64,000 nucleotides of DNA from Escherichia phage PhaxI. Below are positions 4,098-58,163 of the stretch, one piece after another (the first letter of the stretch is position 1; each line of letters begins with the position of its first letter). Position numbers and translations under genes: made by a program. The notes beneath the pieces were generated by a model. It was not told the origin of the DNA, made no database searches, and was given only the letters and a program-made list of their open reading frames with translations. Location of the stretch: sequence record JN673056; one strand, written 5' to 3'.

Positions 4098-4875
4098 TAT
4101 TTTGTTGCTCCCGTTCTAATGCTCGTTTCTTTGCTTCTTCCCAATCTGGTTCCATAGAACATATTTCGTCTTCCAGATTGAATTGAGTAGAGCCGAAGTC
4201 ATAGTCTGAATTATCTTCGGCGTCGGCGGTAATGGTATTTTCACTCTTTGTGAGACATTGAAGTATACCGCGAGGAATTTTCTTATTCTTTTCCTCTTCT
4301 TTGATGGCGATTTGCTTTTGGCGTTCCTTTTCGCGCTGGGCTTCTTTCTTAGTTTCAAAATTTCCGATACGCTCACGAAAGTCCATTGTTATACCAGTGC
4401 TGTCTACGAATGTCTGTTGCTGGAAGTCTGGGTCATCTGATAATGCAGCGAAACCACCTGCTTCTTCAAATGAACGCAACTTGATATAATTGTGTTCTTC
4501 TTCACTGGTGAGTTTCTTGGCGAATGAACGATCGGCGCACATCGTTACCCAAGAGAAGAAATTGATTTTTCCTTTCTTGCCGATATGACTGACGTCAAAT
4601 GTATGGAGGTAACGAAGGATGTTGACAACGGCCTCACTGACCATGTCTTCGCGGTATGGATAATCACGATAGTTGTAGCGCATACTCATGTTCTTAATAA
4701 TCATCTGAACATTCATGGCCACATAATTGGGGATTCTTGGTAGGGGTGTTCCTTCGGCCAAAGCCTTTTTGCGAGCCGGAATCCAATCTCTCAATATTCC
4801 AACAACACGGTCATTATCTTCGTCTGTGAAATATTTGGTGACGTTATCACCCCTGTCTACAAAATTCATACCCAT
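4084..4875 (-). CDS. late-transcription sigma factor (T4 gp55-like), with acidic C-terminal extension
   Basis: Positionally equivalent to T4 gene 55 next to gp47; segments LRDW, MNVQMIIKNMSMRYNYRDY, NFFSWVTMCADRSFAKKL align by eye with remembered gp55 (IIDW, [39 protein letters not shown]); start moved from TTG 4890 to ATG 4875 preceded by GAGGAT. Confidence 0.55.
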   Translation of the reverse strand: MGMNFVDRGDNVTKYFTDEDNDRVVGILRDWIPARKKALAEGTPLPRIPNYVAMNVQMIIKNMSMRYNYRDYPYREDMVSEAVVNILRYLHTFDVSHIGKKGKINFFSWVTMCADRSFAKKLTSEEEHNYIKLRSFEEAGGFAALSDDPDFQQQTFVDSTGITMDFRERIGNFETKKEAQREKERQKQIAIKEEEKNKKIPRGILQCLTKSENTITADAEDNSDYDFGSTQFNLEDEICSMEPDWEEAKKRALEREQQNNGDC

Positions 4876-4886
4876 CGTGATAATCC

Positions 4887-5414
4887 TCAAATACCAATGA
4901 ATTCATTGAAAGAACCAACGACTTTCTTGACCGAGAAACGGTTATTTTCAAGAACCATTGAACTATCTTCTTTGGCTCTAACGCTCCACTGATCCGCAAT
5001 TTCGTTGCCCATCGTTCCTGCATGACCTTTCACCCATTTTAATTCAAGTTCACAAATTGAACAAACTTTGTCATAATAATCGAACAACTCGAGCAGAAGT
5101 TCTGTGTTCTTAGGCGGCATTCCTTCATATTCCCATTTACGACGCCACTCCAAAACGCTATTGATAACATATTGGCTGTCGGATATAATGCGGGCTGGGG
5201 GAATGCAGCGTTCACCGCAATTAGAGAATTTCCATAGGATCTTCATCGCGTTTATAACCCCGAGTAACTCAGCTATATTGTTCGTTGACGGCGGGGGTAA
5301 ATACCCATAAAACACTTTCCATTGCTCTCCAGTGATTGGACTGATGGCAAATGCCCAACCAGCGGCTCGTGTCTTCTGAGGGGATGATGCCCCGTCAGTG
5401 TATATTTCAATCAT
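4887..5414 (-). CDS. rnhA: ribonuclease HI (bacterial rnhA type)
   Basis: RNase H motifs IYTDGA, NNIAEL, SDSQYV, WVKGHAG..NE.AD match E. coli RNase HI catalytic residues; start set to ATG 5412-5414 (track begins at TTG 5429). Confidence 0.75.
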   Translation of the reverse strand: MIEIYTDGASSPQKTRAAGWAFAISPITGEQWKVFYGYLPPPSTNNIAELLGVINAMKILWKFSNCGERCIPPARIISDSQYVINSVLEWRRKWEYEGMPPKNTELLLELFDYYDKVCSICELELKWVKGHAGTMGNEIADQWSVRAKEDSSMVLENNRFSVKKVVGSFNEFIGI

Positions 5415-5456: not shown

Positions 5457-6224
5457 ATGTCAGAACGCGCATATCGTTTCAGTCTGACCGCCCCAGAAAT
5501 TGAGCGTTTGCTCTTGTCTATAAATGATTCCATACAAAAGCTGGACATCATTTATGACTACACGGCGGGTGGGACTGAAGGTCAAGTCGCAGCTGCGTCA
5601 GCTGTCAAAAACATGTGGCTAAAACTTAATGAGATGGTCACAGGTGAAGGTCTTAAAGACGCAATCAATGCAGCTAACGACAGCAACGTATTCACCGATT
5701 ATTATAAGTCTATTTTAGATCGCGAAACTTGGAAATTTATTGGTTCTCCGGCAGATTTATTAGCAAGGGACGATATAGACACTTCCAATTTTGAAGGCGG
5801 TGAAGTAATCCTCCTACAAAAGAACGCTTCGGGCAACCCAGAATTCCAATACTGGAAAAGAACTCCTGTGGCAGGAGGTGATCCAATATTTGGTTGGGAA
5901 TCTGTTTATGAAGGAAACTCCAACGACTCTTCTATTGATATTCCGGTTGTTGGGACCAGCATACTGAAGACAATCCCAAAAGCATTGTTTCATATGGTCG
6001 AATTCCGAGTACACGCTCGAGAGTCTACCCTCGGTCATTGGCAGGACACTGATGGCAAAATCGGTTATCGTGGTGAAGATCTGATTTATAGCCTGTATAA
6101 TCATGTTCAAACCAAACCGATCGCAAATATATCTTTCAGCCAAGATGTGGACAATATGATTATCACGATAACGACACTTGAACCAAATATCAAGTGCCAT
6201 TTATCGTTTATTGCGGGTTATTAA
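5457..6224 (+). CDS. hypothetical protein (255 aa), plus-strand
   Basis: ATG 5457 preceded by GAGGAA; convergent with flanking minus-strand genes; no motif recognised. Confidence 0.45.
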   Translation: MSERAYRFSLTAPEIERLLLSINDSIQKLDIIYDYTAGGTEGQVAAASAVKNMWLKLNEMVTGEGLKDAINAANDSNVFTDYYKSILDRETWKFIGSPADLLARDDIDTSNFEGGEVILLQKNASGNPEFQYWKRTPVAGGDPIFGWESVYEGNSNDSSIDIPVVGTSILKTIPKALFHMVEFRVHARESTLGHWQDTDGKIGYRGEDLIYSLYNHVQTKPIANISFSQDVDNMIITITTLEPNIKCHLSFIAGY

Positions 6225-10062: not shown

Positions 10063-10690
10063 TCTGTTCCCGAGACAGATATTCCCAACGGGTTGCGAGA
10101 AATACGCGTCTAACAGCAGCAGTTGAGCACAGCGCGATTACGAGTTTCCTCTCCATCATGATACCGTTCATATGTGGTGAACGGGCTGTCCATACAACAT
10201 ACTGACCTAAATCGTCGTTGGCAGTCAGGCTAATGCGAAACTGATTACACAATTTGTCGATTAACGCATAATCATATGTGAACGTCCCTTCAGTTTTCCA
10301 GCTTGATTTCTTCACCTGAAGAGCTTCACCACGAGTTCTGAATTCTAACGTCACTCCATGAGTTTCATTGTCGAAATGAACAACTCTCTGAGTTTCATTT
10401 TTCAGAGTCCGGTTCATATTATGTACGAAGAAACGGGCGTCGATCTCCCTATTGCTCATGGAATTAAAATCGATCGGCCAAAAACGAGCGCGCATAATCG
10501 CGCCTTCTGGCAATACAATTAGTCCATTTTCACGGGAGACATAGCAAAGACGTTTAACTACAGGGTCAGGATGTTCCACACAATAAACGGAAATTCCAGT
10601 GGGAAGGATAGCGTGGGCGACAACACCAGATCTTTCAAAATATAAATTACCCTGGTCAGCCCCGATGATAATACGGCTCTTGTTGTTCAT
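10022..10690 (-). CDS. hypothetical protein (222 aa)
   Basis: Long ORF in minus-strand operon, no motif recognised. Confidence 0.45.
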   Translation of the reverse strand: MNNKSRIIIGADQGNLYFERSGVVAHAILPTGISVYCVEHPDPVVKRLCYVSRENGLIVLPEGAIMRARFWPIDFNSMSNREIDARFFVHNMNRTLKNETQRVVHFDNETHGVTLEFRTRGEALQVKKSSWKTEGTFTYDYALIDKLCNQFRISLTANDDLGQYVVWTARSPHMNGIMMERKLVIALCSTAAVRRVFLATRWEYLSREQIDNALSHCNRLEV

Positions 10691-10747
10691 AATATAGATC
10701 TCTCAAATAAAAGGCGGTTTAATAATAACCGCCCTAATGTTATTGAA

Positions 10748-11910: not shown

Positions 11911-12596
11911 CTTTCGTTCTCCTTCATCATATTATCACAGTCAATTCTTGTTTGCTTGAGTTCACGGGCAAGCCTGGGATCATCAAGATTGACAGACAAA
12001 TTAGTGGAAAGATCTTTCAAACCATTCTGAACACGGTCTTCATAATAATGATCATTTTCCACCAGCCATGCTCTCAGGCCAAGGGCGCGAGTCCGCCATT
12101 CCTTTTTCAAACGTCGATCTGATTCTTGATCAGCACTGTATTCAAATACTCGGATACATTGGTTGCCATCATTGATGAGATCCAGCTGACGTCGGCCAAC
12201 CTGCACACCTTTTTGTAATGCTGGAGAAGGAAGAGAACGGCACTGTCTTACGGTCATTCGTCCTTGTGTGCCCATACGACCAGTCATGATGAGATCGCCA
12301 GCCTCCATGCCTCCTCGATTAAATTCTTTGTCGTTCATATATCCTTTCAGGTTGAACGCGCCTTGCTTATATCGATTAAACTCAATACCAGCATTTACAA
12401 CGGCATCTGTGACATTACCTGTGGCCCAGAGTTCAGCAAAGTTCTCTATGGAACCAGTTTTGTCTATAGCGACGGCTTGGGAGAACCCAGCACAGTAGGA
12501 AAGATCAGACCACAGTTTTTCACCTGTGGAGTTCAGCTTGGCGGTGGCAGGAAGTGCCAGACCAGCCAGCACAACCCCGATGATTAAACGTTTCAT
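11907..12596 (-). CDS. secreted/periplasmic protein (229 aa)
   Basis: Start set to ATG 12594-12596 with SD AAGGAG giving MKRLIIGVVLAGLALPATA signal peptide; track ORF extends further upstream to 12761. Confidence 0.45.
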   Translation of the reverse strand: MKRLIIGVVLAGLALPATAKLNSTGEKLWSDLSYCAGFSQAVAIDKTGSIENFAELWATGNVTDAVVNAGIEFNRYKQGAFNLKGYMNDKEFNRGGMEAGDLIMTGRMGTQGRMTVRQCRSLPSPALQKGVQVGRRQLDLINDGNQCIRVFEYSADQESDRRLKKEWRTRALGLRAWLVENDHYYEDRVQNGLKDLSTNLSVNLDDPRLARELKQTRIDCDNMMKENER

Positions 12597-12675
12597 GGTG
12601 ATTCTCCTTATTTCATTGGATAAAATGATAGGGCTGTCACCATGTTGAGTAAAGGGTTTCAATAAACTATCGTAT

Positions 12676-13125
12676 TCAGAAACGGGTATCGCTGACCGTT
12701 CTGTATCGCACACCCTGAAACTGTTTAGCGAGTTTAACAAATTCCATCGCTGGCAAATCAACTTTGTAGACCTTCATGCGCTGTTTGCCGTCCATGTTCA
12801 ACGCAGCGACAAATCGGTGAGACCCGTCAACAACGTAATTGTCAGAAGACACCCAAACTCGACCCATGGGCTTCTTATTTCTGATCTGCTTCATAATCTT
12901 CCAGACCTTCATTTTATTGATTTCGTTCTGGGTAAGACGAAGCATTTTGATGGGCACTTGCGCAGCATCTATGGACACGCCGTTGTCTTCAAGATATTTG
13001 TGAAAATCTTCTTGTTTGTCGGCATCGATTTGCGGCATAGAAGAACGAGAAAGCCCGAGGTTCCCAACAGGAATCCTCAGGCCATTTATGATATTCATCC
13101 AGTCAATAAAGGATGTAAGGAACAT
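12676..13125 (-). CDS. ParB-like nuclease domain protein
   Basis: Motif ..KPMGRVWVSSDNYVVDGSHRFVAALNMDG.. matches the ParB/Srx N-terminal domain signature (vIDGhHR). Confidence 0.5.
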   Translation of the reverse strand: MFLTSFIDWMNIINGLRIPVGNLGLSRSSMPQIDADKQEDFHKYLEDNGVSIDAAQVPIKMLRLTQNEINKMKVWKIMKQIRNKKPMGRVWVSSDNYVVDGSHRFVAALNMDGKQRMKVYKVDLPAMEFVKLAKQFQGVRYRTVSDTRF

Positions 13126-13162
13126 GACACACCTCGGGATATAGGGTTATCCCTTAGTTAGT

Positions 13163-13441
13163 TCATTCGGACTTAAACAGCAATTCGCGAACAGAAGTCC
13201 CAACGATATTTTGGGCGTTCAACAAACGAGTTAAATCATCCATGTCGTATGCTGAATTGGTGACATGGCCCAAGATAATCGCCAACATTCCCTCCAGCGC
13301 TCTCCGATTGTTATTCTCTTCAATGTCAAACTTAATTTCAACAAATCGAGATAGCATTCTGGATTGAGCATGAGTTTCGTTGGTTTTGCTCTGTATAATA
13401 TCTTTGATTTCCGAACGAGCAATACTTCTTTGATCTGTCAT
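13163..13441 (-). CDS. hypothetical protein (92 aa) starting MTDQ
   Basis: Preceded by conserved hairpin-RBS cassette (see repeat 13425-13510); AAGGAA SD. Confidence 0.45.
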   Translation of the reverse strand: MTDQRSIARSEIKDIIQSKTNETHAQSRMLSRFVEIKFDIEENNNRRALEGMLAIILGHVTNSAYDMDDLTRLLNAQNIVGTSVRELLFKSE

Positions 13442-13510
13442 GATATAGTTCCTTCATTTCAAATGGGCGGGGCAAAGATACCCCGCCGTGGGTTTATAGG
13501 GTAACAAGTG
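13425..13510 (-). repeat. terminator-RBS-start cassette, copy A (hairpin GGCGGGG-N8-CCCCGCC then CATTTGAAATGAAGGAA..ATGACAGATCAA)
   Basis: About 75 percent identical over about 70 bp to 13985-14070, including the first four codons (MTDQ) of the downstream gene. Confidence 0.6.
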
Positions 13511-14000
13511 ATACGGTAAAAACCATCGTCCCATCTGTTGTCATTTTTCTTGAAACTGGGAAGACGCGAGGCTGACAGAATATCCATTCTTTCTCCATGG
13601 ACGCCAAGTCCAGCATATCCATTTCTGATTCATCGCCTTTGTTCACAAATTTTTCTAGAGAACCAAAGACATTAAGCCCCTCTGGGAGTCCGTTTCGATG
13701 TTTATAACAAATGCGGGCAACAGCTTTGGTTCCATACGATTTAGAAAATTGTTTGGCCACATGCTTCAGTTCGCTGAAACTAAGACAAGAATCCCATGTC
13801 TGAAACATGTCTCCTCGTTCAAACATCATCTCCAAACGCGCAACGTCCTCTTTAGGCAACCCGCGATAAAGTGTGGTCATCTGCGGTTCGCGTAATTCTT
13901 GCACCAGACCACGGATGGCAGGGGAAACAGTGCCAGGGCGCATGATGTGGGACTTATCATGGACGAGGTAAAATAAATCTTGAATTTGTTGATCGGTCAT
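13494..14000 (-). CDS. hypothetical protein (168 aa) starting MTDQ
   Basis: Preceded by copy B of the hairpin-RBS cassette; no motif recognised. Confidence 0.45.
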   Translation of the reverse strand: MTDQQIQDLFYLVHDKSHIMRPGTVSPAIRGLVQELREPQMTTLYRGLPKEDVARLEMMFERGDMFQTWDSCLSFSELKHVAKQFSKSYGTKAVARICYKHRNGLPEGLNVFGSLEKFVNKGDESEMDMLDLASMEKEWIFCQPRVFPVSRKMTTDGTMVFTVSLVTL

Positions 14001-14070
14001 GATGTATTTCCTTCATTTCAAATAGGCGGGGTAATCATACCCCACCCTAAGTTATAGAATTAACTGATGT
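13985..14070 (-). repeat. terminator-RBS-start cassette, copy B
   Basis: Hairpin GGGGTA-ATCA-TACCCC followed by CATTTGAAATGAAGGAAATACATCATGACCGATCAA on minus strand; paralogous to 13425-13510. Confidence 0.6.
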
Positions 14071-14350
14071 GCTTCAGAAGAGCGAAGAGGATCGCGGCCT
14101 TGGCTTTCACCTTTCCGACGACGCCTGTTTCGACATCGACTTCTTCGGCAACCCAATCTTTTCCCTTCTTGCTGATGATAACATCGCGGCGCTGGGCATA
14201 TACTTCTTTGGTCGCATACACACGACGGAACCCTTTAGCGCGGAGCAAGCCCCAATTACGATCATCTCCACTGAGTTCTACCATTTGTCTCATGATATAT
14301 CTACCTTTCACCTGTGAACCCATCGTTCGCCAGTTATTGAATATACGCAT
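14060..14350 (-). CDS. hypothetical protein
   Basis: ORF in operon; likely shorter than track ORF (internal Met MRQMVELSG). Confidence 0.35.
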   Translation of the reverse strand: MRIFNNWRTMGSQVKGRYIMRQMVELSGDDRNWGLLRAKGFRRVYATKEVYAQRRDVIISKKGKDWVAEEVDVETGVVGKVKAKAAILFALLKHIS

Positions 14351-14412
14351 TTGCCTTATAGAAGTAAACCCCTAAAAGTAAAAATCCCCCAACGTTTGTT
14401 GGGGATCTTCAG

Positions 14413-14745
14413 TTACTTGCGCAGGGCAACCACGTATTCGGCAAGTTCACCCATGGTCGGGTCGTCGCCTTTACCGCCCAGCCAGCCATCAGAGATCTCG
14501 ACATTGAACTCTTCTTCTAGTTCCATGACGATTTCGATGGCATCAAGATCGTCGCCGCCGAGGTCTTTCTTGGTGCGGAGGCCAGCCAGTTTATCCAGGG
14601 CGTCATTCATAATCACTTCCGCGTCGACGATGCCTTTGATGCTGCTCTTGTCTTCGTCACTGACTTCCAGGTTCAGATTGTCAGTGGCGTACTGAGCCAG
14701 GTGACGCATTACTTCAACATAAGTTGGTTTGTTTGACATAAGCAT
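14413..14745 (-). CDS. acyl-carrier-protein-like protein lacking the phosphopantetheine-attachment serine
   Basis: KDLGGDDLDAIEIVMELEEEFNVEISD aligns with E. coli ACP [27 protein letters not shown], but codons GAC GAT (DD) replace the DS of the DSL motif; checked on the DNA. Confidence 0.6.
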   Translation of the reverse strand: MLMSNKPTYVEVMRHLAQYATDNLNLEVSDEDKSSIKGIVDAEVIMNDALDKLAGLRTKKDLGGDDLDAIEIVMELEEEFNVEISDGWLGGKGDDPTMGELAEYVVALRK

Positions 14746-14758
14746 ATCTCAAAATGAA

Positions 14759-14774
14759 GGCGGGTTTCCCCGCC
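14759..14774 (-). terminator. GC hairpin (GGCGGG-TTTC-CCCGCC) between vWA gene stop and ACP-like gene start
   Basis: Perfect 6-bp GC stem followed on minus strand by TTCATTTTG; 13 nt upstream of the ACP-like ATG. Confidence 0.4.
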
Positions 14775-14782
14775 AGTTGAAT

Positions 14783-17035
14783 TTAGATTTTGACTTCTTT
14801 TTCAGCCAGTTCGGCAGTGACGGTGTATTTCACCCCATCAACGTCCACATCCATAGTGGATTCTTCCAAATCCAGGTCGGTAAACCAACCATGGCCTGCA
14901 ACAATCCCATAAACTACCTTGGACAGCGTTTTGTTCAGAGATCGAACTTCGTTGATAGCTGCTTTTGCTGCATCACCAATCCAACTTTCGATCAGCTTTT
15001 TCTGAGTCTCTTCCGGTACGCTGGTGATCATCGGCGATTTAACAAACGCATTGTATTCGGCCAGGGCATTAGCGATCAGCTGATCAGCGACATTCAGTTT
15101 TTTACCGTCCGTCTGTTTTTTGATAACAGACGCGATGCTCGGCAGTGAAGATGCGCCTTTGATTTTCACATTCAATTCACGACTCATATAGACATCGGTT
15201 GATTCTACAGAAGAAGTCTTCGGTGAAAATCCATAGTCGCGAATGCCGTTTGCTGACAGGAAATCAGCCGCTTCTTTGCCATATTTTGAAGCCAGACCCG
15301 TAGCGTTGCCTTTTCCAACCAGTTCATCACGGTAGAATTTCAGAACTTTCTGTTTTGCCTTCAATGCTTCACGGCGCACATTGTCTGCAAAGAATTCAGC
15401 AGCACTGATATTCTTTGTCATGGCGCGGTTAACCATTGGGACACTTTCCAGATTTACAATGAAGACTTCCGGCCCACCAAACACATGAACACCCATGGCA
15501 GTCAAATCCTGTGCCACCTTAGCCCGAACAATCGGAGAATCTGCAGTGATAGGCATTGTTTTCAGGTTGATGATACCATCCTTGACAATGGTGTAATTGC
15601 GATAACGCCATGTATCCAGCTCTTCAGGAAGTTCATATTTCTTCTGTACAAACTCGGGCACAACAACCGTCCCGTGTTGAACTGTCTGCACACTGATGTT
15701 AGGACGTTCTGAATTATAGACCAAATTGCTGATCGGGACAATCCCTTTATCATCTGCTGGATTGAATTCCGGCGTCCAATCTTCGTGCTCGGCCAGTTTG
15801 AGCGCCAGGGCTTTACGCTCTTCTTTAGAAGTCGCATTCGCAATCTCTTCGGCCAACTTGTCTTCGGTGTCGTCAACTTTTTGTATAGTACCGCGCCCAA
15901 TGCTCTTGTAAGAGAATAGCGGATGCTTGGTGACGATAGAGACATCTGCTTCAGCCAAATACGTCAGAACATCAACAATGGTGGTGGCGTCTTCAGCCGG
16001 AACCATATTATAATCGATGCCATCAACTCCTCGCAGAGATTCGTCTACGATAGCCTGAGTCAGATCGACTTTGATGTTGGAGTAATCCTGCTTGGTGAAA
16101 CAGTTGCTGTATTGTTTGATGAAGCGGACGTCACCCGTTTTCTTCAGCGCAGCCCAAACCAAATCTGCGTCCATGGTATACACGCCGTAAAATGCCAGCA
16201 CGTATGCCGCTTGGATGTCTGCCAGATTATCCAGCTGGTCGATCATGTTGGGGTTTACAACCCACAGCTGAGAAACGCTTTCAGGGATGCTGACGTGGCC
16301 AATAGGGTGCTCTTCATCAGGATGCACAGCTAAAACAGTCGCCACGCCATTTTCAACATAAATGGCATGGGTGTAAACCAGGGGAACATCGACCACCACT
16401 TTCGGTGAAGAAGTTTTTAGCACGTTTTCCAATTCGGTCTGATATTCATTCTGGCCTTCGGCGAATACGTGGGTCGCACCAGAACGTTCTGCCATTAGCG
16501 CCAGCAGTTCGCGATTACAATACCAACCGTATTCGATGAAGGTAATGTTATCAAACGCTTTGGGCAGTACTTCAGCGGCATCCAGGATTTCATTAGAGCG
16601 CCAGCAGTTGTCATATCCGTCGGTCATGAACGCCAGGTTATTGACATAACCAGGTTTGTTCAGGCTCATCGCGGTTTCAGCAGCCAACTTCAGAGGTTCT
16701 ACAAATCCCGTACAACCTGACGGTTGCAGGAAGCGGTCAATCAGTTTATTGATTTCACTGAGATCGGTCGCGCTATTGATCTGACGGCCAGCGAATACCG
16801 TACCGAAATCACCACGGGATGAAAAGTAAAGAATGCTGACGGTATCTTCTGGTTTAACCAGAGACGGGAGATTTTCCTTCAGATGCTTACGGACTTCTGG
16901 AAGTGAAAGATACATGGACCGGGAGATATCCACAACGATTACATGGTTAGACGGTGCGACGGTCGCAACCGCATTCTTAAATGTTAATGATTCAATCATC
17001 GTTATTACCTTCTTTGGTGGTTTGAGCGGCTTCAC
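14783..17035 (-). CDS. von Willebrand factor A (vWA) domain protein (750 aa)
   Basis: MIDAS motif DxSxS (VVVDISRSMY) in N-terminal domain followed by a long C-terminal region of unknown fold. Confidence 0.5.
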   Translation of the reverse strand: MKPLKPPKKVITMIESLTFKNAVATVAPSNHVIVVDISRSMYLSLPEVRKHLKENLPSLVKPEDTVSILYFSSRGDFGTVFAGRQINSATDLSEINKLIDRFLQPSGCTGFVEPLKLAAETAMSLNKPGYVNNLAFMTDGYDNCWRSNEILDAAEVLPKAFDNITFIEYGWYCNRELLALMAERSGATHVFAEGQNEYQTELENVLKTSSPKVVVDVPLVYTHAIYVENGVATVLAVHPDEEHPIGHVSIPESVSQLWVVNPNMIDQLDNLADIQAAYVLAFYGVYTMDADLVWAALKKTGDVRFIKQYSNCFTKQDYSNIKVDLTQAIVDESLRGVDGIDYNMVPAEDATTIVDVLTYLAEADVSIVTKHPLFSYKSIGRGTIQKVDDTEDKLAEEIANATSKEERKALALKLAEHEDWTPEFNPADDKGIVPISNLVYNSERPNISVQTVQHGTVVVPEFVQKKYELPEELDTWRYRNYTIVKDGIINLKTMPITADSPIVRAKVAQDLTAMGVHVFGGPEVFIVNLESVPMVNRAMTKNISAAEFFADNVRREALKAKQKVLKFYRDELVGKGNATGLASKYGKEAADFLSANGIRDYGFSPKTSSVESTDVYMSRELNVKIKGASSLPSIASVIKKQTDGKKLNVADQLIANALAEYNAFVKSPMITSVPEETQKKLIESWIGDAAKAAINEVRSLNKTLSKVVYGIVAGHGWFTDLDLEESTMDVDVDGVKYTVTAELAEKEVKI

Positions 17036-17266
17036 CTTCCGGCTTTGCCAGCATGTGTTCTATGAATTCGCGATTAGTTTCAATCTGTTGGATTAAAACT
17101 TCGCTGGGTTTAAACTGTGAGTCAAGAGAGTCAACTCTTGAACGCAAAAATGGTTTGGGCAAAGTAATTTCCCTCGCTTTACAATTGGGCCATTATACCT
17201 TGGCTTGTTAATTGAAACGCCCAGCAATTTGCCGGACGTTATTGATTTTGAAAGACTTTTGAAGAA

Positions 17267-17992
17267 TTACAAGTATGACACCACGATGGCTCTATACAGC
17301 GCCCCCACGGAATCACCAGGTTGGGCTTTCGGATCTAACAAGAATTTCTTAACACGATCACAAGCTGCTTGGCGTTTGTCTTCTGACAGGTCACACCACG
17401 GATAATCCCCTGAAGCAGCATTACACGTTTTCGCCAAACGCAGGACAAGTTCAGAATTTAGATCTTCAGAAGTCATAAACGAGCGAAGATACGCTTCCAC
17501 CAAAGATCTTGCTTCACCATTACGCCGTTCGTTATAACGTTCATTATCGGTGCGAACAAATTCAACTCGACATCCCCGACTTGGATCCTTGGGATGACGA
17601 AACACGACGGATTGTCCTTTACCCTCAAGGAATTCAGAACCACCCATCTCATGTATCGCTTCCCTTTCTGACACATATTCATCAATGTTGATCTTAGCAT
17701 CTTTGGCGGACACATCGATGATCTGCTTTTCTACTATCGCGCGATATGCTTCCAGTTCCCATAGTTGAGAAAGGGTCTTTTCATAGGCCAGCTGCTTGCC
17801 TATTTCTTCATCGAAGTGGCAGGGGTCTACCGATGTGGAACTATTCTTACCCCACACAATGAACCCATTGTCCATCTTGAAATGGCATGTAATGACGCGG
17901 TGACCACCAACTTCACGGTCTTCATAAATCACTTCGGCGATGTGGGACTTTAGAAGTTCTGGAGTGAGTTTAATCCCTTCACGATTACCCAT
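17267..17992 (-). CDS. hypothetical protein (241 aa)
   Basis: Long ORF, no motif recognised. Confidence 0.45.
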   Translation of the reverse strand: MGNREGIKLTPELLKSHIAEVIYEDREVGGHRVITCHFKMDNGFIVWGKNSSTSVDPCHFDEEIGKQLAYEKTLSQLWELEAYRAIVEKQIIDVSAKDAKINIDEYVSEREAIHEMGGSEFLEGKGQSVVFRHPKDPSRGCRVEFVRTDNERYNERRNGEARSLVEAYLRSFMTSEDLNSELVLRLAKTCNAASGDYPWCDLSEDKRQAACDRVKKFLLDPKAQPGDSVGALYRAIVVSYL

Positions 17993-18236
17993 TATCCACC
18001 CCCACTTTCACTAAACGGTCTAGTAATTGGCGGATATTACGGGGGCAATGTTCTAGATCTTCATCAGACAAATACAGCACGTTGGTCTGAATATCTTTAA
18101 AAGTTGAAAGGTTATTCAACTCAGATTCGACGACGGTTTTCAATTGCGTATACGCTTCATCGCAATAATTTCGGCGGTTGCAGTCGGTCATTACCTGAGA
18201 TAACTTTTCAAAAGATTCTTGTATTTCCTTTGACAT
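17985..18236 (-). CDS. hypothetical protein (83 aa)
   Basis: Overlapping start/stop with downstream gene. Confidence 0.35.
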   Translation of the reverse strand: MSKEIQESFEKLSQVMTDCNRRNYCDEAYTQLKTVVESELNNLSTFKDIQTNVLYLSDEDLEHCPRNIRQLLDRLVKVGVDNG

Positions 18237-22881: not shown

Positions 22882-23838
22882 TTAATCGAAGCGAGAGAGG
22901 TGTGTCACAGTGTTTTGAACAGGTGCGCACGCGTATACACGAACATTAGCACCCCACACCCCACACAGCTTAGGCATATTGGTATCGTTAATGATATACG
23001 CTGGCACATAACTTTCAATTTGGCCGTTAACATCTACGGGTCGAGAAGATTTTTCAACTGCCATAGAAAGAATTATTTCCAACGTTTTTGGAGATACCAA
23101 ACGCCACGCCGTCAAATCATCAACAAATACCTGACCTTCTTCAATTGCCATGCTGGCAACGATGTCATTGATCTGACGGGAAGGGGTATTCGTCAGCATA
23201 TCAGAGAAATCAGGCTCTTTGAACACAGCCATGTTTTTCAGGAATTTTCCTTTCGGATATTCTTTGCCATTCCACATCACAGTCTCATTCACTTTGATGC
23301 ATGCCTGAGGGAATTCACCTTCAACGCGTAACTGGCCAACTGGGAAACCGCGTGAATAATAATATTCCAGTGCCGGACCGACTTCATCTTCTGAGCGAAT
23401 AAATTTGCTCATGTTGGAGGCATAAACACGCTGCAAGCACTCATCGCCGTTGAAACCAGCAATGTGTGCCACGCCGTCATTGACTGTTGTGATGTCGCCC
23501 TGAGCGTCCAAAATCTGGCGCATAATGTCTTTGATGTCGACAACAGCAGGTTCTTTCAGGACTCGCGGAGATGCAGTGAACTCAATTTTCACCTCGTGGT
23601 CGAAATAAGCCGCTTCCAGTAATTCGCGGGTCTCTTCCAGAACCAGTTTGGCCTGATTGCGAATTTTACCGAAGTCAGGGGCTGTAATATCTCCAGCCGC
23701 ATTACCAAAAGCCAAATTCAGTCTCACGTTTTTATTAAATGTAGTTGTCATAATATAGCGACTCCAGTTATTCAATTTTTGCCCGACTTGGGCGAATGGT
23801 GTATTTTGGAACCAGTTTCCACTCTGAAACTTGGTCAT
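22882..23838 (-). CDS. hypothetical protein (318 aa)
   Basis: Long ORF; no motif recognised. Confidence 0.45.
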   Translation of the reverse strand: MTKFQSGNWFQNTPFAQVGQKLNNWSRYIMTTTFNKNVRLNLAFGNAAGDITAPDFGKIRNQAKLVLEETRELLEAAYFDHEVKIEFTASPRVLKEPAVVDIKDIMRQILDAQGDITTVNDGVAHIAGFNGDECLQRVYASNMSKFIRSEDEVGPALEYYYSRGFPVGQLRVEGEFPQACIKVNETVMWNGKEYPKGKFLKNMAVFKEPDFSDMLTNTPSRQINDIVASMAIEEGQVFVDDLTAWRLVSPKTLEIILSMAVEKSSRPVDVNGQIESYVPAYIINDTNMPKLCGVWGANVRVYACAPVQNTVTHLSRFD

Positions 23839-24232
23839 GTTTTACAACTTTGATCCGAGACATGTCAGCCACTTCGGTTATTTGTTCCGGATGCAAGATC
23901 TTAACCATATTCCATTGCTCCAGAAGCCGTATAATCCGATTCATACGCAGGACATCTTCACGCGTAAAGCCGTTATAGTGCCCATCTAGCATGAACAAAT
24001 GCTTGAAATGCACGATGTGATATCTGCCAAATTTATGCAGGATATGGCACGTTTGATACAAGGTGTTAGGCTCTTGACGAGTGTTAACCCCTATCCGACT
24101 CAGCGTTTCCTTGATACCCAGGAAAATCCCTGGTTTGTCTTGGTTCAATTGAACTTCAACCATACAGTCAACAATGCTGGCCTCATCGTTGACAGCTGAA
24201 AGTTTTAAGATGTCCAGCGTATTACGCGCCAT
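23768..24232 (-). CDS. regA: RegA-like translational repressor
   Basis: GIKETLSRIGVNTRQEPNTLYQTCHILHKFGRYHIVHFKHLFMLDG and EWKLVPKYTI match remembered T4 RegA (VKETLTRMGI..LYQSCHILQKKGLYYIVHFKEMLRMDG, EWKLVPKYTI); same position after gp62 as in T4; possible internal start at MVEVQ (24163). Confidence 0.75.
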   Translation of the reverse strand: MARNTLDILKLSAVNDEASIVDCMVEVQLNQDKPGIFLGIKETLSRIGVNTRQEPNTLYQTCHILHKFGRYHIVHFKHLFMLDGHYNGFTREDVLRMNRIIRLLEQWNMVKILHPEQITEVADMSRIKVVKHDQVSEWKLVPKYTIRPSRAKIE

Positions 24233-25678: not shown

Positions 25679-25707
25679 TGCAGCCTCTTTAGATAAAACG
25701 TTTCAAA

Positions 25708-25725
25708 GGGCGGGGAAACCCCGCC
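25708..25725 (-). terminator. GC hairpin (GGCGGGG-TTT-CCCCGCC) between gp45 stop and gp44 start, followed by CTTTGAAACG
   Basis: Perfect 7-bp stem; same hairpin-plus-TTTGAAA architecture as cassettes at 13.4 and 14.0 kb. Confidence 0.5.
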
Positions 25726-32869: not shown

Positions 32870-33334
32870 TTACAGATCCTGACATTGATCACAATAATCG
32901 TCATATGTGAAAGTTTCATCACATAACCCGTCGCGGATCATATCCGCTTTGGCTTCACCAAACCTTTTTAACGTGATGACATTGCCGTCCAGATCGGTGC
33001 GCAGCGTCGTGGGCTTATTCTCAACGAAATCAAATACAACGAAGAAACCGTCAGTAATATATTTCACGGTTTTATTGGCTAGTTTGCGCATTTGTCCGTT
33101 CTTTTTAAAGATTGAAATGCGTAAGTTTTCAAATTCAGAAATATTGTCATCATGGTTTTTCAGAGCGCTCAACATTTCGTCGAGTTCAACTTCAGGGCGA
33201 AACATCTTAACTTTGTCTTCACGGTCATATGAAATAGATGATTGTATATCAGAAATTCCAAATCCATTTTTAACGAATGCGTCGAATTTGCTGAAATTGT
33301 TGAATGCCCAGACGGAGATTTTTACGATTGCCAT
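32870..33334 (-). CDS. hypothetical protein (154 aa)
   Basis: ORF in operon. Confidence 0.4.
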   Translation of the reverse strand: MAIVKISVWAFNNFSKFDAFVKNGFGISDIQSSISYDREDKVKMFRPEVELDEMLSALKNHDDNISEFENLRISIFKKNGQMRKLANKTVKYITDGFFVVFDFVENKPTTLRTDLDGNVITLKRFGEAKADMIRDGLCDETFTYDDYCDQCQDL

Positions 33335-33388
33335 GATGTATGTCCTTCATTTCAGAGTCAGTGTTGTGCTGCTTATGGAATGAAGTAT

Positions 33389-33445
33389 ACGGGGTTTATT
33401 GAAGAAGTAAACCCCGTTTATTGAAGAAGTAAACCCCGTTTATTG
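33389..33445 (-). repeat. tandem direct repeat (2.3 copies of a 25-bp unit GTTTATTGAAGAAGTAAACCCCG) forming alternative hairpins GGGGTTTA/TAAACCCC
   Basis: Visible as ggggtttattgaagaagtaaaccccgtttattgaagaagtaaaccccgtttattgaa; sits between stop of 33460-33696 and start of 32870-33334. Confidence 0.7.
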
Positions 33446-35053: not shown

Positions 35054-35100
35054 AATGATCTCCTTTCTGAGTAATATAACCCCATATCTTAGAAAAGAAA

Positions 35101-35120
35101 ACCCCGCACATGGCGGGGTT
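35101..35120 (-). terminator. rho-independent terminator after major capsid gene (AAACCCCGCC-ATGT-GCGGGGTTTTCTTTTCT on minus strand)
   Basis: 7-bp GC stem and T-run immediately 3-prime of gp23 stop. Confidence 0.75.
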
Positions 35121-35150
35121 TGATTATAGCGTAAGTCTTTGTTTTAGCTA

Positions 35151-41504: not shown

Positions 41505-42293
41505 ATGATCGGTCATATCTACATGTTAACCGTCGGTAAAAAGAAGTATATCGGACAAACTAGAAACGGCGTTGAGTATCGAGTAAATGAACATTTGGGT
41601 GAAGCAAGAAGAGGGAATAAAACTATCCTCTACAACTATATCCGAAAGTATGGAATTACCAGCCAAGAAATATTGCTAGAATGCCATGTCGATGACCTAA
41701 ACTCTAACGAAATTGAACTCATAAAATTGCATAAGACTCATATCTCTGAAGGTGGGCTGAATATCAGCCGTGGCGGTCAGATAGACATATCTGGTATGGC
41801 CGCAGCATATGATATAGAAAGCAGGGAATTCATCGGAATGAAACCAGTTAATGATGCTGGTTGGAATGTTTTGTTTGTGGCAAAACAATACGGTTTAGTA
41901 CATAAAGAAGAAAGTAAAACAAAAATGTCCCAATCCCAAGCGGTCGTGTGGACAGAAGAAAAGAAAGAATTGCAATCCCGGCGAATTACAAAGGCATACG
42001 AGAATCCAAAATGTAAAGAAAATCTTCGTATCGCTATGAACAAAGTGCGTATGAATCCTGAATTTCAAGAGAAAATAAATCGATCTCTCGGGAGATGGTT
42101 TACACTTCTTTCACCAGCTGGTGAAGAATATGAAATCAAGAATCTAAACAAATTTTGTCAAGAACAATGTTTGTGTATAGAATCTTTCAACATGGCATTA
42201 GCTGGAAGGATGCAGAATCCCATCCCTAAACCTTACAGGAAATCTTCATTGAAGAGAACAAATACCACAGGATGGCATATCAGTAGGAAATAA
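41505..42293 (+). CDS. GIY-YIG homing endonuclease (Seg-like), plus-strand
   Basis: ATG 41505 with SD GGAGGTG; HIYMLTVGKKKYIGQTRNGVEYRVNEH canonical GIY-YIG; divergent from adjacent minus-strand GIY-YIG gene. Confidence 0.7.
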   Translation: MIGHIYMLTVGKKKYIGQTRNGVEYRVNEHLGEARRGNKTILYNYIRKYGITSQEILLECHVDDLNSNEIELIKLHKTHISEGGLNISRGGQIDISGMAAAYDIESREFIGMKPVNDAGWNVLFVAKQYGLVHKEESKTKMSQSQAVVWTEEKKELQSRRITKAYENPKCKENLRIAMNKVRMNPEFQEKINRSLGRWFTLLSPAGEEYEIKNLNKFCQEQCLCIESFNMALAGRMQNPIPKPYRKSSLKRTNTTGWHISRK

Positions 42294-42316
42294 AAACCCC
42301 GCCGAAGCGGGGTTGT
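42293..42316. terminator. bidirectional terminator (CCCCGC-CGAA-GCGGGG) shared by plus-strand HEG and minus-strand gp18
   Basis: A-run before and T-rich run after stem on both strands. Confidence 0.65.
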
Positions 42317-42320
42317 TGTC

Positions 42321-55802: not shown

Positions 55803-55830
55803 TATACAGCCAATAAACAGATAGAAATAA

Positions 55831-55856
55831 AAACCCCGCCTAAGCGGGGGTTTTGT
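55831..55856. terminator. bidirectional terminator (CCCCGC-CTAA-GCGGGGG) with T-runs on both strands
   Basis: AAAACCCCGCCTAAGCGGGGGTTTTGTT. Confidence 0.7.
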
Positions 55857-56738: not shown

Positions 56739-58163
56739 TTACCTACTGCACGCGTTGGGGTTTGGGACAAAAATACCCCAGTTCCAATCAAAGAAATTGT
56801 TATACGTACCAACATTATCATCTATCTGATACCCACGAGTGCATAATTCGCCAAAATAACCATAGAATCGCAAGTTACCAGCAACTTGGGTGTCACTGCT
56901 CACCCTTTTAACAACACGTACCGCACAAGGTACATCAGCAGGCCAAGTGCCTTGTGTGATGTTCTCTGAATGTCCACCGAATACGCGAAGGCTATCTGTA
57001 CTTTCAATCCAGAAGCTACAGTTACCGGTTGCATGGTGCGGGTCGTATATATGAATGCGGGTATTATTATTATCGCCACTCTCTGATCGTTCGAAGAAGA
57101 AACCACAGTCAACACGTTCGAAGTTAGGATTCATAATGGAATGGTAATAAGCACCACTATTGCTACCACCTACAGTTGGGCCAGGTTTGAACTTGATACC
57201 AATCTTAACACCACGTGCTCGTGGGTTCTCCATTACACAGAACTGCTGAGATACACGCACTGTTGTTTGAGTTTCATTTTCTGGTGCAATAGCATAGGCG
57301 ATAACGTCAGTGTGGTTACTTGGGTTAATTACTGTTGGATTTATAACGTGGCAGAAATCATGACTCATGCGAATACAGGTAATGTTATTGGCACCTGCCA
57401 CAATCACTGTCCCAGTGAAATCCAGATAGCGAGTTGACATTACATCCTGGGTATATGAACCGTCAAATTTCATTACGAGGCTATTCGTAATGAGATACTT
57501 AGCCCCAGGTCTGCCAACCAACTTACCGAAAGGTATCCCCTCTAGCCACACTAATGCTTCCAACATTGAGGCAGTGTCATTAGTAACCCCATCTCCAATC
57601 GCACCAAACTCTTCAAATGATTTTATTGTAGTAACCCGATGGGCAATTTGGTCAATTGTTGGACCATACTTTGTTAGGTCAGTTATAAGAGACGTAGCCC
57701 CAACACTAACCCAAGCACCCACGCCAATCCCGCCAGATTCTTCTGGTGTTGAACTGGCAGGTACACTTTTAGGCAATGCCCCATCCCAACGGTATCTACC
57801 ATCTGTAAAAGTAACCAATTCATTCTTGGTATTAACAGTTACACCAGTAGAGAATGAACCAGGTAGAGTTACATACTCTTCACGAGTAACAGCTAATGCA
57901 CCAAGGTCTACATTACCTCCAGAATGAACCAATACACCAGCAGTATTAAGACTGACGGCAGTAGTACCAGCACCAAGGTCAGTAGGTAAGGAATAAGCTC
58001 TCTGTGTTACTTTATCATAGATGACTTTATAGCCACTTAATACAGCACCGATAGAGAAGTAAACAACCTCAGATTGCTTAACTCCAAAGTGACGAGCTAC
58101 TGCTTGCTTGTTGGTTAAGATTCCAGTTGAACCTTTTCCACCTTGTGAGAACAGTTCGTTCAT
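56739..58163 (-). CDS. tailspike protein, short (474 aa) with conserved N-terminal module and start of beta-helix
   Basis: N-terminal 140 aa near-identical to residues 275-412 of tailspike at 61088-64000; GAIGDGVTNDTASMLEAL is typical of pectate-lyase-like beta-helix entry. Confidence 0.6.
   Translation of the reverse strand: MNELFSQGGKGSTGILTNKQAVARHFGVKQSEVVYFSIGAVLSGYKVIYDKVTQRAYSLPTDLGAGTTAVSLNTAGVLVHSGGNVDLGALAVTREEYVTLPGSFSTGVTVNTKNELVTFTDGRYRWDGALPKSVPASSTPEESGGIGVGAWVSVGATSLITDLTKYGPTIDQIAHRVTTIKSFEEFGAIGDGVTNDTASMLEALVWLEGIPFGKLVGRPGAKYLITNSLVMKFDGSYTQDVMSTRYLDFTGTVIVAGANNITCIRMSHDFCHVINPTVINPSNHTDVIAYAIAPENETQTTVRVSQQFCVMENPRARGVKIGIKFKPGPTVGGSNSGAYYHSIMNPNFERVDCGFFFERSESGDNNNTRIHIYDPHHATGNCSFWIESTDSLRVFGGHSENITQGTWPADVPCAVRVVKRVSSDTQVAGNLRFYGYFGELCTRGYQIDDNVGTYNNFFDWNWGIFVPNPNACSR
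57690..58100 (-). repeat. tailspike N-terminal module, DNA copy A (paralogous to 62750-63160)
   Basis: Encodes SEVVYFSIGAVLSGYKVIYDKVTQRAY...YRWDGALPKSV..GGIGVGAWVSVG; roughly 80 percent nucleotide identity by eye to copy B. Confidence 0.7.

Follow-up and report, generated by a model that had tools for sequence, protein, structure and literature searches.

The promoter-early-stem-loop elements (PeSLs) of T4-type phages are intergenic cassettes built of an AT-rich tract, a stem-loop, a sigma70-like promoter (TTTACW-N17-TAYWAT in T4/PST), a Shine-Dalgarno sequence (SD) and an ATG (PMC4122927; PMC2839356). PeSL-mediated gene shuffling has been shown in these phages, together with mini-circles and with crossovers between the -10 box or the SD and the ATG (PMC2839356; PMC4122927). 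The phage PeSL papers found in our literature search concern T4-type phages only, and none was found for Ackermannviridae. In this study, a stretch of 64,000 nucleotides (nt) from Escherichia phage PhaxI (JN673056; the whole stretch is referred to as the window) was analyzed. A first-pass annotation had noticed in it a hairpin, ribosome-binding site and start codon duplicated in front of two unrelated genes, and had likened this element to PeSLs. The likeness held for the stem-loop, the SD/ATG end, the gene shuffling and the occurrence of complete elements ending in the same translation initiation region (TIR), and failed for the promoter, which the two copies lack. We propose that the repeat is probably an intercistronic linker that is conserved in the early, hyperplastic part of Ackermannviridae genomes and serves as a portable crossover site.

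The duplicated unit

A 58-nt unit was present twice on the minus strand, at 14046..13989 and 13487..13430. The copies are 559 nt apart and identical at 50 of 58 positions (86%), which confirmed the duplicated element. Each unit is made up of a GC hairpin of 9-10 bp, then yATTTGAAAT, the SD GAAGGAA, a 7-nt spacer and ATGACnGATCAA.

13430..13487, minus strand: cassette copy 1 (58-nt unit), with its hairpin at 13487..13466, GGCGGGGTA-tctt-TGCCCCGCC
13989..14046, minus strand: cassette copy 2 (58-nt unit), with its hairpin at 14047..14024, GGGTGGGGTA-tgat-TACCCCGCCT, also written GGTGGGGTA-tgat-TACCCCGCC

In copy 1, the hairpin is followed by CATTTGAAATGAAGGAACTATATC and then ATGACAGATCAA, the segment directly after the stem being CATTTGAAAT. 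The SD GAAGGAA and the spacer CTATATC lead to the ATG at 13441, which opens a 92-amino-acid open reading frame (ORF), orf138. In copy 2, the hairpin is followed by ATTTGAAATGAAGGAAATACATC (longer form TATTTGAAATGAAGGAAATACATC) and then ATGACCGATCAA, with TATTTGAAAT directly after the stem. The SD is again GAAGGAA, the spacer is ATACATC, and the ATG at 14000 opens a 168-amino-acid ORF, orf140. The 5' arm GGCGGGG given by the first-pass annotation is correct for copy 1; in copy 2 it reads GGTGGGG, with a G.U pair. The two proteins were said to start with MTDQ and to be otherwise unrelated, and this was borne out, as MTDQ is all they share and BLASTP of the pair gave no alignment.

An independent repeat finder returned 65 nt at 83% identity, 559 nt apart, as the strongest non-coding direct repeat in the window. 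Folding of 76-nt segments gave -22.7 kcal/mol (z -3.6) for copy 1 and -21.1 kcal/mol (z -3.3) for copy 2, and a covariance model of hairpin and TIR scored them at 74.6 and 74.3 bits, respectively. CTATAA is found 5-6 nt 5' of both hairpins (13494-13499 and 14052-14059, minus strand); before copy 2 it is non-coding, with TTCTATAA kept across genera, and before copy 1 it is the last codon and stop of orf140. Two short, moderately AT-rich tracts adjoin the units: TTAATTCTATAA on the 5' side of copy 2, and CCCTATAAACC, with the stop codon inside, on that of copy 1.

The motif CCCCGCC-N1-2-TTTGAAA occurred 3 times versus 0.00 expected from 100 dinucleotide-preserving shuffles, and all 3 sites were on the coding strand, 23-30 nt 5' of a start codon. 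The covariance model found two full cassettes in the window and two in the complete CBA120 genome, with all other sites at or below 27 bits. A genome-wide regulatory motif was therefore rejected, as both the regular-expression and the covariance-model searches of the window and CBA120 gave two full copies, accompanied by a graded family of TIR-only relatives. A scan of IMG/VR for the TIR pattern returned only ten contigs of 156-161 kb, the Ackermannviridae range. Rfam covariance models gave no match in window 12500..15000 at E values up to 1.

Gene exchange behind the linker

All genes around the cassettes are on the minus strand, in the order terminator, early promoter, orf141, hairpin 2, orf140, hairpin 1, orf138, orf137.

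14386..14405, minus strand: intrinsic terminator TCCCCAACaaacGTTGGGGG then ATTTTTACTTTT, which closes the acyl-carrier-protein (ACP) gene unit (-16 kcal/mol, z -3.6)
14340..14368, minus strand: T4-type early sigma70 promoter TTTACT-N17-TATATT, the predicted driver of the operon holding both cassettes
14060..14293, minus strand: orf141-like gene (77 amino acids, phrog_804), the first operon gene, whose stop codon precedes copy 2
13494..14000, minus strand: orf140 (168 amino acids, phrog_832) with an Alt-like ADP-ribosyltransferase domain, bracketed by both cassettes
13163..13441, minus strand: orf138 (92 amino acids, phrog_4458), found directly after a single cassette in locus L015 and after denV in Vi01
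12676..13125, minus strand: orf137-like conserved gene (phrog_2859), which anchors the variable slot on its downstream side

The window comes from a Vi1-like myovirus (Kuttervirus, Ackermannviridae). Its region 12000-18000 shows about 98% identity to the Salmonella phages SS3 and SS9 and about 97% to CBA120, a phage of E. coli, and 276 phage records share it. Seventeen syntenic loci were compared, namely the window, Mutine, CBA120 and Vi01 (Kuttervirus), XF4 (Limestonevirus), Ag3 (Agtrevirus) and eleven IMG/VR genomes. Among them, the ACP and orf137-like genes were 739 to 2142 nt apart. A hairpin with TIR stood behind the orf141-like gene in all 17 loci and three genera, and four unrelated genes occupied the position directly after this linker: orf140 in the window, CBA120, Mutine, L013 and L018; denV (Pfam Pyr_excise) in Vi01, XF4, L010, L012, L017, L019 and L020; a 124-amino-acid gene starting MKKLIL (phrog_5474) in Ag3, L011 and L014; and orf138 in L015.

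Breakpoint mapping showed that positions 1098-1155 of L015, which has the architecture orf141-hairpin-orf138, align to both 14046..13989 and 13487..13430 of the window. Therefore, the window equals L015 plus 559 nt, with a 58-nt direct repeat around orf140, and the unit is probably present twice because orf140 and its trailing hairpin sit in the linker site downstream of orf141. The same relation was found between L013 and L014, with a 50-nt repeat around orf140, here ahead of the MKKLIL gene. Comparing XF4 with Ag3, denV is bracketed by a 17-nt TIR repeat, and in Vi01 denV sits where the window has orf140 and its hairpin. The junctions in the relatives are situated either within the hairpin/ATTTGAAA segment or within the TIR, ...ACTATATC-ATGA. 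The orf140 module brings along a trailing hairpin of its own (...TGTTACCCTATAAACCCAC-hairpin-CATTTGAAA) in each of two distinct downstream settings. This gene was found in 66 phage records versus the 276 sharing the region, and by its distribution orf140 is an accessory gene.

Judged from the alignments, the direct-repeat geometry is a signature of linker-mediated insertion or deletion. In L013 (about 4825-5255 of the locus), a 73-nt terminator and early-promoter element is duplicated around a 74-amino-acid ORF (MSAVSR...) that is absent from L014; by its layout this is a classical PeSL-type insertion, in an Ackermannviridae genome. The comparison of gene content among related phages, covering 17 loci from three genera, bore out the recombination-mediated gene shuffling suspected by the first-pass annotation: four alternative, unrelated genes follow the linker, and direct repeats of the cassette or its TIR flank the inserted genes.

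The neighborhood of the slot showed further variation. The protein of the ACP gene (window 14413-14745, minus strand) is 92% identical to that of Agtrevirus Ag3 and 64% identical to those of CBA120 and Mutine, and the DNA flanking the gene is 96-99% CBA120-like, so that the ACP region forms a small mosaic patch with nucleotide divergence at about 14571-14665. orf140 itself occurs as two alleles (about 95-100% and about 55% identity), with one distant relative in an Erwinia jumbo phage. Its protein aligned only with the catalytic C-terminal portion (positions 1270-1425 of 1480) of a long PHROG profile, that of the Alt-like 'RNA polymerase ADP-ribosylase'. Pfam gave no hits for orf140, orf138, orf141 and orf137, and PHROGs alone labels orf140 as an Alt-like ADP-ribosylase.

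Promoter and terminator tests

The promoter at 14368..14340 fits the T4/PST PeSL promoter consensus TTTACW-N17-TAYWAT (PMC4122927), and the terminator-then-early-promoter arrangement was found in 17/17 syntenic loci. Intrinsic terminators were required to have at least 5 U in the 8 nt after the hairpin. The terminator at 14405..14386 passed this criterion and is kept in 15 of the 17 loci.

The distance from stem to ATG is 23-24 nt in both cassettes, which leaves no room for a promoter, and a promoter scan of both copies found no -35/-10 hexamer pair reaching threshold. The strict pattern TTTAC-N17-19-TAYAHT was matched in the window at 14368..14340 and 33411..33384 only, neither of them inside the cassettes. 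The loops TATGAT and TATCTT and the upstream CTATAA were considered as sigma70 -10 boxes, and a promoter inside the cassettes was rejected since their spacing or conservation was unacceptable. CTATAA was likewise rejected as a T4-late TATAAATA box, as the relatives differ from one another at positions 6-8 of the TATAA... motif. The tails of the two hairpins, CATTTGAA and ATTTGAAA, contain 3 T in 8 as opposed to 5-7 in the canonical terminators of the genome, and their identity as canonical terminators was rejected on the U-tract criterion. Consistent with this, the terminator scan found 14405..14386 and 14774..14759 and neither cassette copy. Since the cassettes have neither room nor motif for a promoter and a poor U-tract, both hairpins appear to be intercistronic elements within one predicted early operon.

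A separate family of canonical terminators that hardly differ from each other, AAAACCCCGC-loop-GCGGGGTT and then a T-run, was observed at 35092-35124, 42287-42319 and 55824-55856. It is reused across the late/structural region and is distinct from the GGCGGGG hairpins.

Conservation of the hairpin and its flank

The structure comparison included 16 distinct cassette sequences from three genera. All of their stem cells (144/144) formed standard pairs. Three stem pairs were invariant and five varied on one side alone, always giving G.U or U.G on the sense strand, changes that would read A.C on the antisense strand or in the opposite cruciform arm. One compensatory pair, G-C to A-U, was found in Ag3. 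When the 3' partners were slid by 1-3 columns, pairing fell to 44-65%. The G.U-only pattern, on which the case mainly rests, argues for selection on the transcript and hence for a hairpin maintained as a sense-strand (mRNA) structure.

The segment ATTTGAAA directly after the stem (window 13457-13464 and 14016-14023) was invariant in all 16 variants from the three genera, and both this segment and the spacer were better conserved than the SD. Related forms, CTTTGAAA, GTTTGAAA and ATTTGAGA, stand behind other GGCGGG-type hairpins. In the minimum free energy (MFE) folds, the AU-rich spacer and the AUG were unpaired or weakly paired. A second conserved helix, UUUGA/UCAAA, which shows in the MFE fold of copy 1, was considered as an explanation of MTDQ and rejected, as it is weak and is not kept in the cassettes before denV or the MKKLIL gene. 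The homology of the two copies runs 12 nt into both ORFs. orf138 starts with MTDQRS in every context and orf140 with MTDQQ in both alleles, which fits homology, or an old crossover or conversion tract that would end just inside the ORF.

One hairpin showed an unusual rearrangement. In L013 (IMGVR_UViG_3300045988_142553), the hairpin behind orf140, ending at about 6142 of the locus, reads GGCGGGGTAatcaTACCCCGCC, which is the usual GGCGGGGTAtgatTACCCCGCC exactly reverse-complemented. The loop differs at each of its four bases (tgat to atca), the stems are unchanged and the flanks are not inverted, a pattern that looks like a hairpin or cruciform template-switch event.

Related hairpins and complete elements

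The 203 annotated starts of CBA120 were ranked against the 27-nt TIR. Six of them matched at 21-27 positions, compared with 8-14 for the bulk: orf138, orf140, orf176, orf096, orf234 and orf112. The last four are located behind (G/C)TTTACTTCTTCAATAA-N6-TATA(C/A)T promoters, that is, of the GTTTAC-N17-TATA(C/A)T type, with a stem-loop just 5' of or overlapping the -35 box and spacer and a conserved leader on the 3' side. TAYATCATG occurred 18 times versus 3.3 in shuffles, nearly always at starts, and the exact spacer CTATATC was found at 5/203 starts versus about 0.15 expected from position-specific base frequencies. One complete element lies in the window:

33331..33440, minus strand: complete PeSL-like element with an AT-rich tract and the stem-loop ACGGGGTTTA..TAAACCCCGT

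It continues with the promoter GTTTAC-N17-TATACT at 33411..33384, a 49-nt leader and the TIR TCTGAAATGAAGGACATACATC-ATG, which is close to the cassette TIR. The complete elements of PhaxI and CBA120 fit the published PeSL layout (PMC4122927; PMC2839356), and they end in the same TIR as the promoter-less cassettes. In the element at 33384-33440, before the orf176 homologue, GGGGTTTACTTCTTCAATAAAC is duplicated in tandem relative to CBA120; this duplication is 22 nt long and spans the -35 region together with a portion of the stem. In its TIR and first codons (ATGGCAATCG, MAI), the element agrees with that of orf234 in CBA120 and not with the orthologous orf176 (ATGACAACCG, MTT). These features suggest slippage and conversion between cassettes, and the TIR and first codons may be a parallel to the MTDQ conversion tract.

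The stem sequence GGCGGG/CCCGCC was found again at 4-5 sites. Looser relatives of the cassette were as follows:

25709..25725, minus strand: third hairpin GGCGGGGtttCCCCGCC, between the gp45 and gp44 homologues, followed by CTTTGAAACG
25701..25725, minus strand: the third hairpin with its tail CTTTGAAA (13 bits, E 0.43 in the covariance model)
10687..10735, minus strand: hairpin AGGGCGGTT..AACCGCCTT followed by ttATTTGAGAGATCTATATT-ATG (23 bits, E 0.001)

The third hairpin, which the first-pass annotation had placed before gp44, is real and has the stem and TTTGAAA in common with the cassettes; its TIR is different and its score marginal, and it is a loose relative only. In T4, the gene 45/44 intergenic region also contains a hairpin (GAGGGCttcgGCCTTT, about 5868-5917 of T4 locus L031), which suggests that the clamp/clamp-loader intergenic hairpin may be a conserved attenuator in T4 and PhaxI. 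In CBA120, a further hairpin with TIR, GCCCCTTCGGGGGC tta CTTTGAACTGAAGGACTATATC ATG, was observed at 143407-143440 (about 43397-43428 of L005, minus strand) before an ORF without RefSeq annotation. Longer direct repeats of 297 nt (70%) and 91 nt (80%) were found about 5.06 kb apart, at 57674-58082 and 62734-63139 in the tail-spike/tail-fibre region, and are probably N-terminal modules common to paralogous tailspikes.

Proposed mechanism

We infer that the unit is a promoter-less PeSL-type linker combining an RNA attenuator or stabiliser with a standard early TIR. Early transcription from the promoter at 14368..14340 would read through both hairpins, and each hairpin could, on the RNA, both terminate transcription in part, as an attenuator, and shield transcript ends. 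The 3' end of the upstream cistron would be protected in this way, and so would the 5' end of the downstream cistron after processing or where the hairpin immediately follows a promoter (Ag3 and L013). The unpaired AUUUGAAAU-GAAGGAA-N7-AUG would offer an efficient, standard start to any gene placed behind it. At roughly 30-60 nt, the linkers could serve as portable crossover points for the efficient homologous recombination of the phage, by unequal exchange or by excision and integration of mini-circles. Since the linkers are near-identical wherever they are present, phage recombination would use them as crossovers, and genes could be inserted, deleted or replaced without breaking the expression of their neighbors.

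Several points weigh against this proposal. The polarity of the event is ambiguous, as it could be an insertion in the lineage of the window or a deletion in that of L015, and in L018 orf140 has no hairpin behind it. The covariation statistic is weak with few related sequences, 35 of 500 shuffles reaching the observed score. The invariance of ATTTGAAA is not specifically predicted by an attenuator and TIR model, and a bound factor may be involved. The literature searched on promoter and transcript mapping in Ackermannviridae gave in-silico promoter and terminator counts for LIMEstone only and no transcriptome. The linkers are also not the sole route to change, since the orf136 indel of CBA120, tried as a cassette-mediated event, was rejected as such on its junctions, which are away from any cassette.

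Alternative explanations

One alternative concerns the regulator encoded by the following gene, which is context and not part of the repeat:

23768..24232, minus strand: RegA-family translational repressor gene (PF01818, 120.8 bits)

The conserved, unstructured AU-rich segment that reaches from the SD slightly beyond the AUG (ACUAUAUC-AUG-A), perhaps together with AUUUGAAA, could be a translational operator that binds a RegA-family or other RNA-binding regulator. A set of early accessory genes would in that case be switched off jointly, and selection for regulator binding would keep the repeat, with recombination as a by-product; such a role is compatible with that of a linker. T4 gene 45 is itself repressed by RegA, and the cassette TIR equals the gene 45 TIR at 17/18 positions (ATTTGAAtTGAAGGAAAT) and resembles that of gene 44, a likeness that could however reflect a strong SD in an AU-rich context. 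RegA represses gene 44, and in genes 44 and 45 the spacer between SD and AUG is protected by the RegA of RB69 (PMC3014915). The RegA homologue of PhaxI is encoded at a T4-like position next to genes 62 and 44, the sites bound by RegA in T4 and RB69 lack structure, are rich in A+U and lie across or directly before the AUG (PMC3014915), and the over-represented CTATATC spacer and the conservation of ATTTGAAA and spacer above that of the SD point in the same direction. On the other hand, the classical RegA targets of PhaxI (genes 44, 45, 62 and regA) do not have the cassette TIR, and T4 RegA sites have no strict consensus and typically carry a 5' poly(A) tract, which is absent here (PMC3014915). 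We consider the operator unlikely. A similarly doubtful proposal is that the linker is a plug-and-play module of post-transcriptional control, hairpin-AUUUGAAA-SD-CUAUAUC-AUG, bound by a phage factor, for which a RegA homologue at the spacer and AUG, or a nuclease or RNA-binding protein at the hairpin and AUUUGAAA, would be candidates. If this were true, any gene recombining in would gain early-gene translation level, mRNA half-life and timed shut-off, and the module would be a promoter-independent, RNA-level counterpart of PeSLs kept across Ackermannviridae genera.

The remaining explanations place the function in the DNA, in complete transcription units or in chance. The GC palindrome could be extruded as a cruciform or hairpin and be the target of a phage nuclease or recombinase, leading to site-specific swaps; the PeSL authors speculated on a DNA-level role for GGGG...CCCC stems (PMC2839356). 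The crossovers that map to the hairpin/ATTTGAAA segment, the exactly inverted second hairpin of L013 and the recurrence of the GGCGGG/CCCGCC stem at 4-5 sites would agree with this. The one-sided changes, which are G.U on the sense strand and A.C mismatches in a cruciform arm, favor selection on the transcript instead; the denV junctions lie in the TIR, 17-25 nt from the hairpin, some of them without any hairpin, and no dedicated recombinase was evident in the locus by Pfam/PHROGs annotation, so that we regard a DNA-level site as improbable. It is very improbable that the copies are complete PeSLs heading independent units, in which the hairpin would be an efficient terminator and the downstream gene would have its own promoter overlapping the hairpin, e.g., at the TATGAT loop of copy 2. 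RB49 PeSL stem-loops are often found between or over promoter boxes (PMC2839356), and the loops of copy 2 (TATGAT) and Vi01 (TATTAT) resemble such an arrangement. However, no -35/-10 combination reached threshold in either copy, copy 1 has TATCTT as its loop and lacks a -35 element at a spacing of 16-18 nt, matches to the strict early-promoter pattern in the window were limited to the two sites outside the cassettes, and 3 T in 8 follow the stem as opposed to 5-7 in canonical terminators. Finally, two ordinary terminator-plus-RBS intergenic regions might have converged under shared constraints. The layout is indeed common, 42 of 185 GC-rich hairpins in CBA120 lying within 60 nt 5' of an annotated start, and a preferred spacer motif exists. 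Against convergence stand the 50/58 identical positions, which include bases near the loop, positions outside the SD and 12 coding nt, the chance expectation of 0 for the motif, the scores of 74 bits for both copies versus at most 27 bits elsewhere, and the direct-repeat-around-insert geometry repeated in a second lineage. Shuffles, breakpoint mapping and the covariance model thus effectively refuted coincidence, which we regard as negligible. The intercistronic linker and crossover site is the explanation that we favor.

Implications

The linker would extend the PeSL concept, in which cassettes are both expression signals and recombination linkers, from Straboviridae to the Vi1-like Ackermannviridae. 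It would also mean that the promoter is dispensable, a hairpin with a standardised translation start sufficing as a conserved linker within an operon. Such linkers could explain the patchy distribution of accessory genes among near-identical isolates. Vi1-like phages are in wide use as candidates for biocontrol and therapy of Salmonella, E. coli O157, Dickeya and Klebsiella, and their engineering could profit from a natural site at which unrelated cargo is tolerated (denV, a gene resembling ADP-ribosyltransferases and small ORFs).

Comparison with known systems

Parts of the cassette have counterparts in several described RNA elements. Like intrinsic terminators and attenuators such as the T4 45/44 hairpin, it has a stable GC hairpin after a stop codon on the coding strand, but its tail (C/U)AUUUGAAAU, with 3 U in 8 versus 5-7, predicts partial termination at best. 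In the E. coli ompA leader, a 5'-terminal stem-loop reportedly stabilises the mRNA, as Emory, Bouvet and Belasco are said to have found in 1992. The cassette likewise has a hairpin followed by a single-stranded AU-rich segment and SD, and some hairpin-TIR units (Ag3 and L013) are a few nt downstream of the predicted early-promoter start and thus near the mRNA 5' end. The hairpins of the window, in contrast, are internal to the transcript, and 5' protection would need processing upstream of the hairpin. The RegA operators of T4 and RB69 (PMC3014915) resemble the cassette in the A+U-rich unstructured SD-AUG stretch at several early genes, and a RegA homologue is encoded in PhaxI. They differ in having no strict consensus and a poly(A) tract, and 44, 45 and regA of PhaxI do not have the motif.

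The closest known system is that of the PeSLs (T4-type RB49/phi1, T4/PST and KVP40/nt-1; Arbiol et al. 2010, PMC2839356; Comeau et al. 2014, PMC4122927). Both are short conserved intergenic cassettes with a GC stem (GGGG...CCCC, G-T pairs tolerated) that end in the SD and ATG of the downstream gene. Both are situated in a hyperplastic early region where ORFs differ between close relatives, act or would act as linkers for insertion, deletion and replacement, and have crossovers near the SD and ATG. The PhaxI genome also holds complete elements with the T4-type TTTACW-N17-TAYWAT promoter. Unlike PeSLs, the two copies are without the defining sigma70-like promoter and lie inside an operon, and their stem-loop has no U-tract and no -35 overlap. 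An effectively terminating stem-loop and mini-circles formed by recombination between cassettes are further traits of PeSLs; in the two copies, the U-tract, a sequence proxy for termination, is weak. Because the promoter test failed, the two copies were not classified as strict PeSLs.

The '1/2 PeSLs' of PST and nt-1 (PMC4122927) are likewise stem-loops without a functional promoter, beside indels. They are decayed remnants that keep the -35 box (PMC4122927), whereas the PhaxI unit shows no remnant of a promoter, hardly varies in ATTTGAAA and spacer, and occupies one syntenic site in 17/17 loci. Since the promoter-less form has been kept across three genera with structure-preserving changes, the unit is not merely a decayed copy.

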